Shown here: positions 16,525-35,358 of the stretch, in pieces
How the letters are laid out: each line of letters begins with the position of its first letter
How positions within the stretch are numbered: position 1 is the stretch's first letter
Assembly (NCBI GenBank): GCA_964593805.1
Contig: CAZQHP010000002.1
Span: 1 to 41,741 of the forward strand
Direction: 5' to 3'
Source: an uncultured Candidatus Saccharibacteria bacterium
GTDB taxonomy: Bacteria; Patescibacteriota; Saccharimonadia; Saccharimonadales; JBBQAJ01
DNA: 41,741 nt
Made by a program: the position numbers and the translations under genes
The notes under the pieces: generated by a model
What the model was told of the DNA's origin: nothing
The model's input: the letters and a program-made list of their open reading frames with translations, nothing else
Databases searched by the model: none

Positions 16525-16870
16525 GTCAGATTATCGGCTAATCGCGGCTCGTGTAAAAGCGGGGCGAGGAAAGTCCGGGCAGCATAGGGAGAGGTAGTTG
16601 TTAACGGCAACCAAGGGTAACCTTAGGGAAAGTGCCACAGAAACTATACCGCCCTAGTCTTAAAAAACTGGAGTAAGGGTGAAATGAGTGGGGTAAGAGC
16701 CCACAGTTCTGTGCGGTGACGCATGGAAGTGGTAAACCCTACCTGCTGCAAGGTGGTGGCTCGTATAGGTTTCCCGCCTGAGTCATCGTTTGTCCGCTTG
16801 ATCCGTCGAGCAATTGGCGGGCTAGATAGATGATTAGCTAGAACAGAACCCGGCTTACGGATAGTCTGAC
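16525..16870 (+). ncRNA. rnpB: RNase P RNA, bacterial type A
   Basis: Contains GAGGAAAGTCCGGGC (CR-I), AGTGCCACAGAAA, GGTAAGAGCCCA and ACAGAACCCGGCTTA (CR-V). The P1 helix pairs GTCAGATTATC (16525-16535) with GATAGTCTGAC (16860-16870). TATAAT at 16512-16517 is well placed as a -10. A hairpin with a T-run follows at about 16875-16905. Confidence 0.92.
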
Positions 16871-16902
16871 ATAAAAGGCCACTTGAGATTTGGGTGGTCT
16901 TT

Positions 16903-29304: not shown

Positions 29305-29350
29305 TTCTAAATAGTTTACAGCTTTTAGCAGTCAGCGTACAGAGCTCTAA

Positions 29351-29425
29351 TGGTGCGGGTATCGGGAATCGAACCCGACTCTCAACCTTGGGAAGGTTAT
29401 ATATTAGCCACTATACGATACCCGC
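29351..29425 (-). tRNA. tRNA-Gly (anticodon CCC), CCA encoded
   Basis: A 75-nt cloverleaf: acceptor GCGGGTA/TACCCGC, anticodon loop TTCCCAA, T-loop TTCGATT. Confidence 0.88.
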
Positions 29426-29502
29426 TGGAGCCACCTCGGGGATTCGAACCCCGGACCCCCACTTTACGAAAGTGGTGCTCTAGCCAACTGAGCTAAGGTG
29501 GC
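29426..29502 (-). tRNA. tRNA-Thr (anticodon CGT), CCA encoded
   Basis: A 77-nt cloverleaf: acceptor GCCACCT/AGGTGGC, anticodon loop TTCGTAA, T-loop TTCGAAT. It directly abuts tRNA-Gly with no spacer. Confidence 0.88.
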
Positions 29503-29715: not shown

Positions 29716-29791
29716 GGGCTCGTAGTGAAGTGGTTATCACGCCTCCCTGTCACGGAGGAGATCGCCGGTTCAAATCCGGTCGAGCCCGCCA
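29716..29791 (+). tRNA. tRNA-Asp (anticodon GTC), CCA encoded
   Basis: A 76-nt cloverleaf: acceptor GGGCTCG/CGAGCCC, anticodon loop CTGTCAC, T-loop TTCAAAT. Confidence 0.9.
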
Positions 29792-29793
29792 AG

Positions 29794-29822
29794 TTGACTT
29801 AATACCACTTCTGTGGTATTAT
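29794..29822 (+). promoter_or_regulatory. Near-consensus promoter starting 3 nt after tRNA-Asp, with leaderless geometry
   Basis: TTGACT (29794-29799), a 17-nt spacer, then TATTAT (29817-29822). The ATG at 29830 is 7 nt downstream and there is no SD. Confidence 0.55.
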
Positions 29823-29829
29823 TTATTTT

Positions 29830-30339
29830 ATGCTATTCCTGTTAACTGGCGGCACTATTGATAAAATGCCCGTACACCTCCCTGATGGTACTTTTGATAA
29901 CGACTCGAAGGTCTTTGGAGAAACTCATCTGCCAGAAATGCTTGAGAAAGCGCGCTTTGCTGGCAGGCACACCATAGAAACCTTATTTATGGTCGACAGT
30001 CTAGACATGACTGACGAACACCGGGCACAGATAAATACTGCTCTTGAAGCCACTGACGAAACACAAGTTATTATTACACACGGTACAGATACTATGCCGG
30101 ACACGGCTCGATTTTTGGATCGAAACAAAAAATTGGCAGATAAAACAATTGCGCTTACGGGTGCAATGATACCTTACAGTATGGGCGAAACTTCTGATGC
30201 TCTATTTAACCTAGGTAATGCAATTGCTTATGCTCAAAGCTTGCCATCGGGCATATATGTAGCTATGAACGGTCAAGCTTTTGAAGCAGACAATGTACGC
30301 AAAGACTTAGAGGCTGGTGTCTTCACGACGCTGAAATAG
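29830..30339 (+). CDS. Asparaginase/glutaminase-family protein, N-terminal catalytic domain only (169 aa)
   Basis: LLTGGTIDK (catalytic Thr motif), ITHGTDTM and LTGAMIP motifs are present. The C-terminal domain of classical asparaginases is absent. Confidence 0.6.
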   Translation: MLFLLTGGTIDKMPVHLPDGTFDNDSKVFGETHLPEMLEKARFAGRHTIETLFMVDSLDMTDEHRAQINTALEATDETQVIITHGTDTMPDTARFLDRNKKLADKTIALTGAMIPYSMGETSDALFNLGNAIAYAQSLPSGIYVAMNGQAFEADNVRKDLEAGVFTTLK

Positions 30340-30368
30340 TTCCATACCTGTAAAGTTACGGACCGCCA
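30336..30368 (+). repeat. 33-nt direct repeat, copy 1 (L element), ending in CCGCCA
   Basis: ATAGTTCCATACCTGTAAAGTTACGGACCGCCA matches 31039-31071 at 31 of 33 positions. Confidence 0.8.
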
Positions 30369-30371
30369 TTA

Positions 30372-30400
30372 TTGACATTTATTATGTTATATTATAGTAT
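30372..30400 (+). promoter_or_regulatory. Near-consensus promoter with leaderless geometry
   Basis: TTGACA (30372-30377), a 17-nt spacer, then TAGTAT (30395-30400). The ATG at 30407 is 6 nt downstream. Confidence 0.55.
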
Positions 30401-30406
30401 ATAACT

Positions 30407-31024
30407 ATGTCCTTTTTCCCAGCTAACGAACCTTTTCCAACCCCCGCCAAGAGAACTTCAGATGAGTTATACAATGATGCGCACGCTAACTTTGCAGTTG
30501 GCTATACTGATGTCGCTCCTCGAGATCCCCAAACTGGTAAGTTTCTCTTCCTGAAACGGGTCATTCCACCAACAACAGGTGTACCATGGTTTATTGGCGG
30601 GCGAATCATACCCGGAAAAACTAATGCCGAGAGCGCAGCTGCGCACTTGAAAGATGACACTCACATTGCGGCCTCATCGGACCGCTTTAAAGAAGTATCT
30701 CATTGGACGATTACTCATGTTGAGCCCGCCACGGCAAGTGAAAAAGAACATGTGCGGCACTGTCAGAACACTGTGTTAACTATTGACCTTACGCCAGCAG
30801 AAATAGAGCGTCTTGCACAGGAAGATGCTGCTGGCACATTAAGTGAAGAGTACGAGCCTAACAGCGCTGAATGGTTTGACCCGTCTACTGATGATGCCAG
30901 CCGACTTCAACCTCCTGTTAGGCAGTTCTTGCGTGATTACTTTAGTCACGAAGTTATGATGACAGCCCTTCACACTATGGCACTAGAAGAGAACGAACAG
31001 CGTTCTAATCCTTCTGTAGTGTAA
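30407..31024 (+). CDS. Nudix-fold-like protein with a degenerate Nudix box
   Basis: GGRIIPGKTNAESAAAHLKDDTHI aligns position for position with the Nudix box GGx5Ex7REUxEExGU. The metal-binding Glu/Arg residues are replaced (E to K, RE to AH, EE to DD). Confidence 0.4.
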   Translation: MSFFPANEPFPTPAKRTSDELYNDAHANFAVGYTDVAPRDPQTGKFLFLKRVIPPTTGVPWFIGGRIIPGKTNAESAAAHLKDDTHIAASSDRFKEVSHWTITHVEPATASEKEHVRHCQNTVLTIDLTPAEIERLAQEDAAGTLSEEYEPNSAEWFDPSTDDASRLQPPVRQFLRDYFSHEVMMTALHTMALEENEQRSNPSVV

Positions 31025-31038
31025 TTAAGCTTTTGATA

Positions 31039-31110
31039 ATAGTTCCAAACCTGTAAAGTTATGGACCGCCAAGTTGACTTTATACTACTTTTATGGTAGT
31101 ATTTTTTATT
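31039..31110 (+). repeat. Composite junction repeat: L element copy 2 (31039-31071) fused to a copy of the sequence that follows tRNA-Asp (31072-31110, includes a promoter)
   Basis: CCGCCA AGTTGACTTTATACTACTTTTATGGTAGTAT parallels 29786-29822, CCGCCA AGTTGACTTAATACCACTTCTGTGGTATTAT. I count roughly 27 of 32 identical positions. It contains TTGACT (31074-31079), a 17-nt spacer and TAGTAT (31097-31102), 8 nt before ATG 31111. Confidence 0.75.
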
Positions 31111-31713
31111 ATGTCTCGCGGAGTTGTTATTGGACTTGCCTCCTTACCCGGAGCTGGCAAAGGTGAACTGGCAGTTCAGCTGGAATTGTTAGGAGCGGAG
31201 CATTTTCACGTTGGAGACGTTGTGCGCACCACTGCTCAAGCCAATGATTTTGAGCCCGAAGTAAACGCGCGCGAAGCCTACCTGCCTTTTTGGAGACTAT
31301 ATAGTGCAGAACACGGCGAAAACTGGCTTGCCAGGCTAGCCATGGCTCACGCAGAAGAAAAACAACGCCCGGTTGTAGTTGATGGCGTTAGAATAGCTGC
31401 TGACGCTGAGACTATCGCCTCTGCAGGAACTATGTATTGGCTTCATGGTGATTTGCCTATCCTGGGCAAACGCGTTTTAAAGCGATCTAGAGCCGAGGAT
31501 CATGAAATCGTTTCTGTTGACGAGTATGTTGAAGCTATGAAAAGAGATTTAGCAGACATGGGAAATTTCTCAATGGGAGCTGTCCGGGAATTATGTACCA
31601 TACACCTGCTACCAATTCCGGAAATTCAAGATGAGGTTGAGAGAGCGGAAAATTATCACAAATTAGCTGTCTATGTGTTGGAAACTAGTCTTGGATTAGG
31701 CGTTTCTGCTTGA
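31111..31713 (+). CDS. P-loop nucleotide/nucleoside kinase-like protein
   Basis: GLASLPGAGKGE (Walker A of the adenylate-kinase/dephospho-CoA-kinase-like type) and VVVDGVR. The start is set at MSRGVV (31111), consistent with the promoter position. Confidence 0.45.
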   Translation: MSRGVVIGLASLPGAGKGELAVQLELLGAEHFHVGDVVRTTAQANDFEPEVNAREAYLPFWRLYSAEHGENWLARLAMAHAEEKQRPVVVDGVRIAADAETIASAGTMYWLHGDLPILGKRVLKRSRAEDHEIVSVDEYVEAMKRDLADMGNFSMGAVRELCTIHLLPIPEIQDEVERAENYHKLAVYVLETSLGLGVSA

Positions 31714-32066
31714 CTTTGCGGGGGCTCGGTTGCCGTCATCTCTACTACAGCCGTAATGCCGTATGCGCTCAGGAAACTAGTTATAGCTCGTACATGTTCT
31801 GGTAAAACCCCTAGATCCGGCAAATCTTTTTCTTCCAAGCTTGTCAAATATCTGCCAAAGCTTTCCACGTGGCGAATTCTGATGCCCTCTTCGGCATCTG
31901 TATAGAAAGCTCTGGCAATAGCGCCAAATATAATACGTGGGGTGTCAAACGGTAAATCCTGCCACCACACAAATGCGTCCGATGGGTCAGAATCTACGGC
32001 CGAATGGATAATTTTCTCTGCTGGCATAAACTCATAATCCATCCATATCACAGTATTGGCAATCAT
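31671..32066 (-). CDS. Hypothetical protein (131 aa)
   Basis: An ORF with ordinary composition and no recognisable motif. Its 3' end overlaps the convergent kinase-like gene by 43 nt. Confidence 0.4.
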   Translation of the reverse strand: MIANTVIWMDYEFMPAEKIIHSAVDSDPSDAFVWWQDLPFDTPRIIFGAIARAFYTDAEEGIRIRHVESFGRYLTSLEEKDLPDLGVLPEHVRAITSFLSAYGITAVVEMTATEPPQSQAETPNPRLVSNT

Positions 32067-32121
32067 GAGGTCAACTACGGCTTTGAATAGCCGAAATAGA
32101 TATCACTGCTGGTATAAATGC

Positions 32122-33204
32122 TCAGTTTTTTATCAAAATCTGGGCTTTTTGTTTGTCTTTGAGATCATTCAAATATGACGAGATGTCTTTGAAATTGAAC
32201 AACATATGGGCGGCATGAATTTTGCCATCGCTGGTTGTTTCAATGTTTTTGACTATTTCCAGCGAATAGCCAATGTTTATGACGTCCGAAAACTGGCCCG
32301 GCTGAAGCTTGTATAGCGCGTCTACGGTTTGCGCCGTTAGATCGCGCTTGGTACGCTCTATCGCGCCGATGTCTCCGCCGGTGTCTTTGCTACTTTGATC
32401 GTCTGAGTAATTTTTGGCAACTGCCGCGAAATCCGCTCCGTTTTTTAGTTCTGCCAGAGCCTTATTTGCTCTGTCTGTTGTGGCACTGTCTAGCGTCAAG
32501 ACTACGTTTTGCCTGAGAATTGAATCCCGCAGGCTGCGCTTAAAGTCATCGACCGACCAGCCCCAGTAATCTTTCAAAACGTCTTCAAATACTTTGTCGT
32601 TGTTGCCTAGACGGTTCTGGTTGCGCAAAATTGTAATCTGGTCATTGACTTGCCGTTCGCTGACCGTAACGCTATATTTAGCCGCTAGTTTTTTAACGTA
32701 CATATCGTCCACAACCTTTTCCAGAGCTTGTTTTTTAAAGGCCGCTAATTGTTGTTGGCCCTCGGTAGTCTGAAAATCCAGTTTGAGCTGTGATTCGTAA
32801 TAGTGTGTGTAATGGCGAACTTCAAAAAGATAGCTTTCGTACGAAACAAAGTCGCCGTCAATATAGGCGGCCGGGAATGGGATGACTTGTGACACCCGGT
32901 ACAGAAAACTAGAGGTAGATTGAAACTTATAAATAGCAATGACGCAGTAAGCAAAGAAAGCTATTATACCCGTAATCAACAGAGTGGTGGTGATAAAAAT
33001 GATGCGGTGTTTGGAATGCTGCAAGGGGTAAATGTATTTGCGGGCACTGCCAATAACTTCTTCGCGGTGAGCCGCGATGGTTTCGGTAGTGATGCGCGGC
33101 GCGACTTCTGTTGTGTGAGCTACAACAGGTGTTACTTTGTTTTTTCTTTTAGTTCTTTTAATCCTCAGTTTCGGCAGTTTTGGCTTCTTCAATTTCCTTC
33201 TCAT
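32122..33204 (-). CDS. Membrane-anchored parvulin-type peptidyl-prolyl isomerase (PrsA/SurA-like)
   Basis: Basic N-terminus, one TM helix, a chaperone-like region, then a PPIC rotamase domain (FAAVAKNYSDDQSSKDTGGDIGAI ... GQFSDVINIGYSLEIVK). Confidence 0.7.
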   Translation of the reverse strand: MRRKLKKPKLPKLRIKRTKRKNKVTPVVAHTTEVAPRITTETIAAHREEVIGSARKYIYPLQHSKHRIIFITTTLLITGIIAFFAYCVIAIYKFQSTSSFLYRVSQVIPFPAAYIDGDFVSYESYLFEVRHYTHYYESQLKLDFQTTEGQQQLAAFKKQALEKVVDDMYVKKLAAKYSVTVSERQVNDQITILRNQNRLGNNDKVFEDVLKDYWGWSVDDFKRSLRDSILRQNVVLTLDSATTDRANKALAELKNGADFAAVAKNYSDDQSSKDTGGDIGAIERTKRDLTAQTVDALYKLQPGQFSDVINIGYSLEIVKNIETTSDGKIHAAHMLFNFKDISSYLNDLKDKQKAQILIKN

Positions 33205-34352: not shown

Positions 34353-34425
34353 ATATGTAGGCATTATAACAGATACAATAGCACTGAACAATTTGATTGA
34401 CTGTCATGTGTCGTACAATATGCAT

Positions 34426-35358
34426 ATGCTATTTGCGAAGGCTAAGACTGATTTTTTGGAATACCTGGAGATTGAACAAAACCGTTCCCAGAAAACTATT
34501 GCCAATTATGACCATTACCTAACGCGTTTAATTGATTTTGGCGGTGATATTCAGGTATCGGACATTGAGGCGGAACTTATCCGCAAATGGCGTTTGTGGC
34601 TGAACCGGCTGGGCACAAATACCAGCGATGAACTGCAAAAAACCACGCAGAATTACCACTTAATCGCCCTGCGGAGTTTTTTGAAATTCTGTGCCAAACG
34701 GGACATAAAAGCCCTTAGCGCAGACAAAATTGAGCTGGCGCGAACGGTTCGTAAACAAGTTACTTTTTTGTCGACAGAAGAGGTGGAACGGTTGATGGAA
34801 CAGCCCGATATCAACACCCAAAACGGGCTGCGTGATAGGGCTATATTGGAGTTATTGTTTTGTTCAGGGCTGCGCGTATCGGAACTGGTGGGGCTGGACA
34901 AAGACCACATAAACCTCAAGCGCCGGGAGTTTATGGTGCGCGGGAAAGGCCAAAAAGACCGGCCCATATTTATAAGTACAGATGCCGCCGAGTGGTTGCA
35001 GAAATACATAGATAAACGCACAGATACTACCAGGCCGCTTTTTATAAGATATAGCGGCCAAAAAACGGTAGACCTGTCTGGCAACTTCCACCGGCTGACC
35101 GCCCGCAGTGTCCAGCGCATGGTAGCGCGCTACGCCCTGCTGGCTGGCATAACCAAACACGTCAGCCCCCACACGCTCCGGCACTCTTTTGCCACGGATT
35201 TACTCATGAATGGCGCCGACTTGCGCTCAGTCCAAGCGCTGCTGGGCCACAGCAACGTAGCCACTACGCAAATCTACACCCACGTAACCGACCCCCACCT
35301 AAAGTCAATCCACGAACGGTTCCATAGCAAACACGATGATTTTGATACCGTGAAGTAG
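34426..35358 (+). CDS. Tyrosine recombinase, XerC/XerD family
   Basis: N-terminal SAM-like domain (FLEYLEIEQNRSQKTIANYDHYL) and a catalytic domain with RHSFATDLL ... LLGHSNVATTQIYTHV. The start could be any of three in-frame ATGs (34393, 34420, 34426). I chose 34426 because TACAAT at 34414-34419 sits 6 nt upstream. Confidence 0.85.
   Translation: MLFAKAKTDFLEYLEIEQNRSQKTIANYDHYLTRLIDFGGDIQVSDIEAELIRKWRLWLNRLGTNTSDELQKTTQNYHLIALRSFLKFCAKRDIKALSADKIELARTVRKQVTFLSTEEVERLMEQPDINTQNGLRDRAILELLFCSGLRVSELVGLDKDHINLKRREFMVRGKGQKDRPIFISTDAAEWLQKYIDKRTDTTRPLFIRYSGQKTVDLSGNFHRLTARSVQRMVARYALLAGITKHVSPHTLRHSFATDLLMNGADLRSVQALLGHSNVATTQIYTHVTDPHLKSIHERFHSKHDDFDTVK

Follow-up and report, generated by a model that had tools for sequence, protein, structure and literature searches.

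An array of single-gene cassettes behind tRNA-Asp in Saccharibacteria, probably assembled at the tRNA 3′ end through site-specific recombination

Modules bounded by pdif sites on Acinetobacter plasmids, and the integrative mobile elements exploiting Xer (IMEX) at dif, are moved by the housekeeping Xer recombinases and have no integrase of their own; their sites are dif-like and 28 bp long, with two inverted arms around a 6-bp spacer, and alternate in orientation. Cis-mobilizable elements (CIMEs) are integrase-less elements flanked by att sites that are mobilized in cis by integrative and conjugative elements (ICEs), as in accretion–mobilization in streptococci. CIMEs are not known to occur as long single-gene arrays or to end in a conserved family of terminal elements. 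The tycheposons of Prochlorococcus are several kb long and carry their own tyrosine recombinase and a replication module (bioRxiv 10.1101/2020.12.28.424599). Here we describe an array of small genes strung behind the 3′ end of a tRNA-Asp gene in a 41,741-nt stretch of DNA, referred to throughout as the window, from a 776,748-bp metagenomic contig of a groundwater bacterium of the Saccharibacteria, which belong to the candidate phyla radiation (CPR). We consider it probable that the array is a cassette system assembled at the 3′ end of tRNA-Asp through site-specific recombination, and that this system is widespread in Saccharibacteria.

In several respects the array resembles an integron. Its genes are co-oriented and lie in cassettes of about 0.5–1 kb, mostly with a single open reading frame (ORF); each cassette ends in a conserved element resembling a recombination site, here called L, which adjoins the stop codon; the array head is the single fixed point of insertion; and the cassette pool is huge, mostly unique and functionally diverse. 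However, the array is not an integron. No IntI is present, and the one Xer-family protein nearby reaches 142.8 bits on the integron-integrase model TIGR02249, whose cut-off is 265, and fits XerC/XerD/XerA models. L is 34 nt long without an attC-like hairpin fold, a tRNA gene provides the insertion point with its CCA end, and most cassettes have a strong promoter of their own, whereas integrons provide a common promoter, Pc. Nor is the array a classical integrase-bearing tRNA island. It is like tycheposons in that flexible genes accumulate directionally beside an intact tRNA gene, with flank homology ending at the CCA, in that successive insertions would push older material away from the tRNA, and in that the host genome is streamlined; it differs in having single-gene units and no integrase. 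The units of such islands are separated by partial tRNA copies, typically of tens of nt; here the separators form a dedicated element family sharing only the last 6–8 nt with the tRNA, and one unit, element X, ends in an exact tRNA 3′ copy of 13–18 nt.

With CIMEs the array shares the want of an integrase, the flanking att-type repeats, the tandem arrangement at the 3′ end of a tRNA or other gene and, as we propose, a recombinase supplied in trans; CIMEs, however, are decayed ICEs of many kb. No helper element at the same site turned up in the loci examined, in which no dedicated search for one was made. As in pdif modules and IMEX, the units are small gene modules and an Xer gene is the only recombinase gene near the array, but L elements are direct-oriented and lack inverted arms around the core. 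The idea that the locus marks the replication terminus and dif was dropped, GC skew showing no clear switch there. We found no published description of the system in open-access full text, although one may exist, and a paper on horizontal transfer in Patescibacteria makes no mention of tRNAs.

Anatomy of the array in the window

The array is anchored by a tRNA-Asp(GTC) gene with an encoded CCA (29716–29791, + strand; ARAGORN; Rfam tRNA, 70 bits). The last 6 nt of this gene, CCGCCA (29786–29791), constitute the first junction, J1, and are the core shared by all junctions of the array. A repeat search identified a direct repeat of 42 nt and 86% identity, starting at 29786 and 31066, that consists of CCGCCA and an adjoining arm R, and another of 34 nt and 94% identity, starting at 30335 and 31038, that consists of an arm L and CCGCCA. 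An initial annotation, made by reading this DNA, had claimed imperfect direct repeats L and R around a CCGCCA core, and the search recovered them where it had placed them. The junctions are thus mosaics: J1 joins the tRNA to R, J2 joins L to a different arm, and J3 joins L to R. Both L copies belong to a form that we call L1. Copy a (30335–30368, +) overlaps the stop codon of the first gene and ends in the CCGCCA of J2 (nhmmer E = 1e-7), and copy b (31038–31071, +) ends in that of J3 (E = 2e-8); repeat and shuffle tests support both. They are the only L copies in the window at up to three mismatches (0.00 in shuffled sequence), and the 15-mer CCGCCAAGTTGACTT has two exact copies there against 0.15 expected. 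The bare hexamer CCGCCA occurs 71 times in the window, so that only its placement is special.

Three cassette genes follow the tRNA on its strand. Gene 1 (29830–30339, +; 169 aa) encodes an asparaginase N-terminal domain only (Pfam PF00710, E = 4e-23), and a homologue of 76% identity is the first gene past tRNA-Asp at another locus, L070 (three-digit L numbers denote loci). The 205-aa product of gene 2 (30407–31024, +) had no match in a Pfam scan; its AlphaFold model, of moderate confidence (mean pLDDT 65), was matched by Foldseek to Nudix hydrolases (RppH, Ap4A hydrolases; E = 1e-7), and its Nudix box reads as degenerate. Relatives of gene 2 were found in only two other protein clusters among 5.8 billion sequences, one from the syntenic array of L007 and one from an unrelated glycosyltransferase cluster (L003). 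Gene 3 (31111–31713, +; 200 aa) encodes a P-loop protein, kinase-like by a weak match to Pfam AAA_18 (E = 1.7e-6), and has no intact L after it. The initial annotation had already recognized genes 1 and 2 as a lone asparaginase N-domain and a degenerate Nudix-fold protein, and our searches agree; for gene 3 its P-loop kinase-like assignment stands, while the best start, 31111, lies one base before the one that its coordinate implied.

Each gene is preceded by a near-consensus promoter in the 5′ arm of its cassette, as had been noted from the sequence, with the ATG 7, 6 and 8 nt past the −10 of genes 1, 2 and 3 (6–8 nt had been claimed). In arm R copy 1, the 5′ arm of cassette 1 (29792–29829, +), the −35 is TTGACT (29794–29799) and the extended −10, TGgTATTAT, ends at 29822. 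The 5′ arm of cassette 2 (30369–30406, +) holds TTGACA and TAGTAT at 30372–30400, and arm R copy 2, the 5′ arm of cassette 3 (31072–31110, +), holds TTGACT (31074–31079) and TGgTAGTAT ending at 31102. These promoters match 10, 10 and 9 of the 12 positions of the sigma-70 consensus, all have 17-nt spacers, and two of the three have the extended −10 TG. As the ATG of gene 1 lies 7 nt past the −10, its mRNA would have no leader. The pattern for such leaderless promoters, TTGAC[AT]-N16-18-TANNNT-N4-10-ATG, matched only these three sites in the whole window.

Between the −35 and −10 of J1, arm R also contains a 9-bp hairpin (29800–29821) followed by TTTATTTTAT; the hairpin has a folding energy of −12.3 kcal/mol (z = −3.9) and was listed as terminator-like by the scan. 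Its 8-bp equivalent at J3, likewise with a T-run, has changes on both sides of the stem (ACCAC/GTGGT to ACTAC/GTAGT). With hairpin, T-run and promoter together, R is therefore predicted to stop transcripts that come from the tRNA or from the cassette before it and to initiate transcription of the next gene. Modules of R type occur in other species before unrelated genes, always within arrays and directly after CCGCCA, and R thus appears to be a module, found again in species after species, that serves as both terminator and promoter. The density of consensus leaderless promoters in arrays is 14 times that elsewhere (0.197 against 0.014 per kb), and 35 of the 38 in arrays are co-oriented. The position of these promoters suggests that cassettes are expressed as leaderless mRNAs.

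Variability of the locus and breakpoints at the core

We compared the locus across species by using as query a conserved 536-aa membrane glycosyltransferase-like protein (GT536) encoded upstream, which yielded 80 loci from different Saccharibacteria species. Their synteny is conserved in the order PilX–Xer–NDK–tRNA-Arg–bPH–PPIase–[variable]–tRNA-Asp–tRNA-Thr–tRNA-Gly–m118–GT536. In the window, the variable region is bounded proximally by tRNA-Gly(CCC) and tRNA-Thr(CGT) (29351–29502, −; tRNA scan and synteny) and distally by the gene for a SurA/PpiC-like PPIase (32122–33204, −; Pfam and cross-species synteny). Among 54 species, the shortest gap behind the tRNA-Asp 3′ end measured 80 nt and the longest exceeded 9.2 kb; together the gaps contained 255 ORFs in 231 clusters, 209 of them singletons. 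The functions encoded are unrelated and include Nudix proteins, methyltransferases, GNAT, RRM, VKOR, Crp, enolase and SRAP, as well as DJ-1, a beta-lactamase-like protein, Nramp, a CopG antitoxin, kinases and parts of toxin–antitoxin systems. At empty sites tRNA-Asp is followed by an ordinary hairpin terminator; in all arrays the tRNA-Asp gene is intact, and where tRNA blocks are inverted the variable DNA still lies behind the tRNA-Asp 3′ end. Hence the number and identity of genes between tRNA-Asp and the PPIase gene, which the initial annotation had singled out as the point to compare, are different in almost all relatives.

Homology between relatives breaks at the core. A 702-nt cassette, 94% identical in L152 and L168, is preceded in L152 by the ...GGGCCCGCCA of tRNA-Asp and in L168 by an element of a second form, L2; on the right it ends in both loci with an L1, ...CCGCCAAG, beyond which the sequences diverge. 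In the pairs L104/L152 and L118/L163, the flanks are homologous (about 90%) exactly as far as the tRNA CCA and no further. L085 and L088 have backbones of 95.5% identity and identical tRNA-Asp genes, yet their 9-kb arrays have only three blocks in common (97, 91 and 88% identical), one of them at a different position; as we read them, the block boundaries lie at or near L elements. As in integrons, therefore, the same cassette is found at different positions with its boundaries at the site (L152/L168; L085/L088). The left flanks of common cassettes (tRNA, L1, L2 or element X, a non-coding unit described below) share only about 6–13 nt. The initial annotation had offered recombination between duplicated promoter modules as an alternative to insertion, and flanks of this kind leave that alternative explaining less.

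The closest comparison is with L177, a near relative whose backbone is about 89% identical to that of the window. Its layout is tRNA-Asp, a 148-aa cassette with an L1, element X, R–gene 3 and the PPIase gene. Identity with the window starts 2 nt past the GCCA of L1 copy b, at TTGACTTTATACTAC; arm R copy 2 is nearly identical and lies upstream of the gene 3 orthologue (87% protein identity), which also adjoins the PPIase gene, and nothing in L177 corresponds to window genes 1 and 2. Because L177 keeps R–gene 3–PPIase with other proximal cassettes, R–gene 3 would be the older, distal part, the units on the tRNA side having been exchanged, and the gene 3 unit is probably the oldest in the window array. 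In L177 a truncated L1 start (AATAGTTCC) stands behind gene 3. In the window, a 131-aa ORF of variable occurrence and no assigned function (31671–32066, −) shares 43 nt with the 3′ end of gene 3; it has no counterpart in L177, in which the whole of window 31689–32099 is missing, and so appears to belong to the flexible region and not to the conserved backbone. The truncated L1 and the absence of this ORF from L177 indicate that the distal end of the array varies too. The comparisons with L177 and of the pairs above place homology breakpoints where the initial annotation had thought to look for them, at the CCGCCA core.

An nhmmer model of L1 seeded with the copies from the window and L007 matched the genome loci that carry tRNA-Asp 32 times, and all 32 matches were inside the array gap and on the tRNA strand, array gaps being 15% of the sequence searched. 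All significant matches of L2 (TAGTTCGGAAATCCGACTCTATGCCCCGCCA) in tRNA-Asp loci were likewise in arrays and on the tRNA strand. L1 and L2 have in common a AATAGTTC start and a CCCGCCA end (p = 0.016). A metagenome scan with the L1 pattern added 76 further contigs; genomes and metagenomes combined gave 229 L matches, all on one strand, which represent 187 unique elements. Spacing between L elements had a median of 656 nt (interquartile range 484–948), and tRNA-Asp preceded the array in about 25 metagenome contigs, those that hold upstream sequence. In a sequence logo, L conservation stops at CCA followed by AG (CCA+2), with no conserved right arm. The element ends in CCGCCA in 161 of the 187 cases and abuts a stop codon in 164, and ORFs within L-delimited parts of arrays number 60 on the + strand and 10 on the − strand. 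It had been conceded at the outset that L might turn out to be an ordinary module present at unrelated loci; the copies found are instead confined to arrays and co-oriented with the tRNA.

A candidate explanation of L itself was rejected. By eye, L2 (GTTCG..AATCCG) suggested a mimic of the tRNA T arm, but the likeness fails a shuffle test once CCCGCCA is removed and was not recovered in a MAFFT alignment; T-arm mimicry was therefore dropped as evidence.

A cassette model and its alternatives

We propose that a cassette consists of a 5′ arm starting 0–2 nt past ...CCGCCA, usually one ORF, and a 3′ L1 or L2 of about 34 nt that overlaps the stop codon and ends in CCGCCA. The 5′ arm would often be R, whose hairpin and T-run would stop upstream transcription while its −35 and extended −10 drive a leaderless mRNA. 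The cassette would circularize through a joint between its L end and its own 5′ arm, and the circle would then recombine, through the short core CCGCCA(AG), with the CCA end of the tRNA or with any resident L. Recombination of this kind would yield exactly the mosaics J1, J2 and J3. For the window, the history would be that R–gene 3 already stood beside the PPIase gene when genes 1 and 2 entered on the side of the tRNA. The initial annotation had envisaged serial, site-specific insertion at a tRNA 3′ end, and this finds support in the variable locus, the breakpoints at the core and the array-confined L family. There is also a second anchor, a tRNA-Ser that likewise ends in CCGCCA and whose array starts with a homologue of gene 3 (51% identity).

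The enzyme would act in trans and be encoded elsewhere than in the array, the candidates being an integrase that is unlinked or mobile and the host's Xer-family tyrosine recombinase (34393–35358, +), which is the only recombinase in the neighbourhood and lies 2.7 kb from the array. The latter is a generic XerC/XerD/XerA-type protein by its model scores, in keeping with its earlier description as a housekeeping Xer; as the initial annotation also stated, no integrase lies inside the array. It is the most conserved protein of the neighbourhood, with 73–86% identity across species (about 30 loci), a level unusual for a recombinase; most of its neighbours are at roughly 40–60%, and NDK, PPIase and PilX at about 30–60%, with a few NDK orthologues at about 70%.

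Several observations weigh against this model. Species that have an empty site carry the Xer gene no less than the others do. BLAST and an Xer-profile hidden Markov model (HMM) found no integrase in the ORFs or six-frame translations of about 130 arrays, a search that would miss very divergent or non-tyrosine recombinases, and no circle or deletion junctions were found in Logan contigs of three groundwater runs, contigs being unable to show rare forms; a search for RNA runs returned none. L has neither a fold nor the obvious inverted-repeat arms that tyrosine recombinases usually bind: it folds no better than shuffled sequences (z = −0.2 to −0.3), and the repeat search of the window returned no inverted repeat spanning L or arms around the core. 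The presumed recombination partners have a core of only 6–8 nt in common, and similarity between L and the tRNA beyond (C)CCGCCA is not significant (p = 0.12–0.22 for L2 and 0.19–0.48 for L1). Some cassettes start tens of nucleotides past the CCA, as in the F19 block. Recognizable L copies were present in only about 19 of the 54 species loci, and some of the long gaps counted as arrays are probably ordinary neighbouring genes brought in by rearrangement.

Two other explanations deserve attention, each of which we regard as improbable and neither as better than the other. The first is that L and R are expression modules and that cassettes turn over by natural transformation with RecA-type or microhomology recombination, with no dedicated enzyme. 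R does combine a terminator with a promoter; Saccharibacteria are naturally transformable, and the window contains type IV pilus genes; and L with its trailer, or R, offers 35–45 nt at 86–94% identity. However, L was not found outside arrays, which is odd for a general expression signal; every copy is co-oriented; conservation stops sharply at CCA+2; and the left flanks of one and the same cassette (tRNA in one locus, L2 in another) share fewer than 10 nt, too little for RecA.

The second is that larger elements with an integrase of their own (of phage, ICE or tycheposon type) integrated repeatedly at tRNA-Asp and that deletions reduced them to the present cargo genes, with L as decayed att remnants. 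tRNA 3′ ends are classic integration sites, similar accretion is seen in tycheposon islands, and element X ends in an exact 13–18-nt copy of the tRNA-Asp 3′ end, lying between the CCA and the tRNA trailer. Against this, the search of about 130 arrays revealed not even a fragment of an integrase, integrase, phage and conjugation genes are absent from the most frequent array Pfams (the top 25 of 75 and of 66), and the units are uniformly single genes of about 0.5–1 kb. L1 and L2 are families distinct from the tRNA sequence and conserved across many species, which points to selection and not to decay. Moreover, the L2 pattern and the tRNA-Asp 3′ end were unmatched in IMG/VR, the window array had no blastn match in phage and plasmid collections, and the 12 matches of the 16-mer CCCGCCAAGCATAAGC in a search for phage or plasmid carriers were all in unrelated contexts.

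That L acts mainly as RNA, as a tRNA-end-like signal for 3′ processing or stability with its junction position a by-product, is very unlikely: L does end in RCCA like a tRNA, overlaps stop codons and is often followed by tRNA-type trailers (AGCATAAGC), but it has no significant secondary structure or T-arm similarity, and such a role, which could coexist with recombination, leaves cassette turnover and breakpoints unexplained.

The cassette model can be extended to a fuller proposal, which we put forward tentatively and think rather unlikely as a whole. In it, the locus would be a third, integron-like platform of gene capture, with the CCA of tRNA-Asp as insertion site, L1 and L2 as cassette sites, a terminator and promoter in each cassette, leaderless mRNAs, and the single, unusually conserved Xer of the host acting in trans, a housekeeping enzyme that would double as cassette integrase.

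Neighbouring sites, element X and significance

Further observations concern L and its surroundings. L1 copies are also found between tRNA-Gly(CCC) and m118 (L104:11909, L155:9701, L118:6217, L136:538 and L164:534), which suggests a second, smaller insertion site beside the main one; its counterpart in the window (29305–29350) is empty. Directly after several tRNA genes (Asp, Gly and Arg), and before their terminator, stands a trailer motif, (AG)CATAAGCA(C/T), as at L104:10185–10200, at L114:100–115 and after tRNA-Asp in L088 and L047. The same motif, sometimes inverted (GCTTATG), is found behind many L elements and may be a tRNA 3′-processing signal. A 63% homologue of gene 2 stands alone in the glycosyltransferase cluster of another Patescibacterium (L003:7928–8663), where it has a leaderless-type promoter to itself and lies between the copies of a 10-nt direct repeat, AGGTCTAGCT; it may be a cassette that landed at a non-tRNA site.

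In many species the orientation of tRNA-Asp and its array, or of the tRNA-Gly/Thr/Asp block as a whole, is reversed with respect to the backbone (L044, L051, L061, L070, L074, L086 and L087 compared with the window; also L127, L140, L104 and others), so that the locus is an inversion hotspot as well. Many metagenome contigs run Xer(−)–NDK–tRNA-Arg–bPH–PPIase–tRNA-Asp(+) and on into an array. Assemblies often break at or just past tRNA-Asp; the contig of L002 ends inside the tRNA gene, and many loci are similar. Such breaks fit strain-level heterogeneity or array repeats. Elsewhere in the window, positions 1–628 (−) are the 5′ part of a 16S rRNA gene and 16526–16873 (+) a class A RNase P RNA; an Rfam scan of the window returned no families besides these two and tRNAs.

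Element X, which is conserved and non-coding, measures about 190 nt, consists of a terminator hairpin and a segment of about 136 nt, and is found at L085:9068–9265 (−), L177:598–786, L027, L029, L011, L074 (two copies) and L126/L127. It is placed like a cassette, directly past the tRNA CCA or past an L1. The 5′ and 3′ ends of the 136-nt segment pair (minimum free energy −48.6 kcal/mol, z = −2.3), and an internal hairpin has apparent compensatory changes between species, the four sequences being too poorly aligned in RNAalifold to settle the structure. The element matched no Rfam family and could represent a novel small RNA with a link to tRNA genes.

Members of the CPR, Saccharibacteria among them, live on other bacteria with very small genomes of their own, and little is understood of the ways in which they acquire and exchange accessory genes. 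The locus behind tRNA-Asp is a compact, ordered store in which hundreds of different single-gene cassettes meet one tRNA at precise junctions, and tRNA-Asp/R and L/R provide a testable set of sites with which to find the recombinase. If the mechanism is confirmed, it would represent a new gene-capture system outside the integron family and a natural landing pad for engineering organisms that are hard to manipulate. It would also provide a marker of strain-level diversity in metagenomes, in which arrays often coincide with contig breaks.

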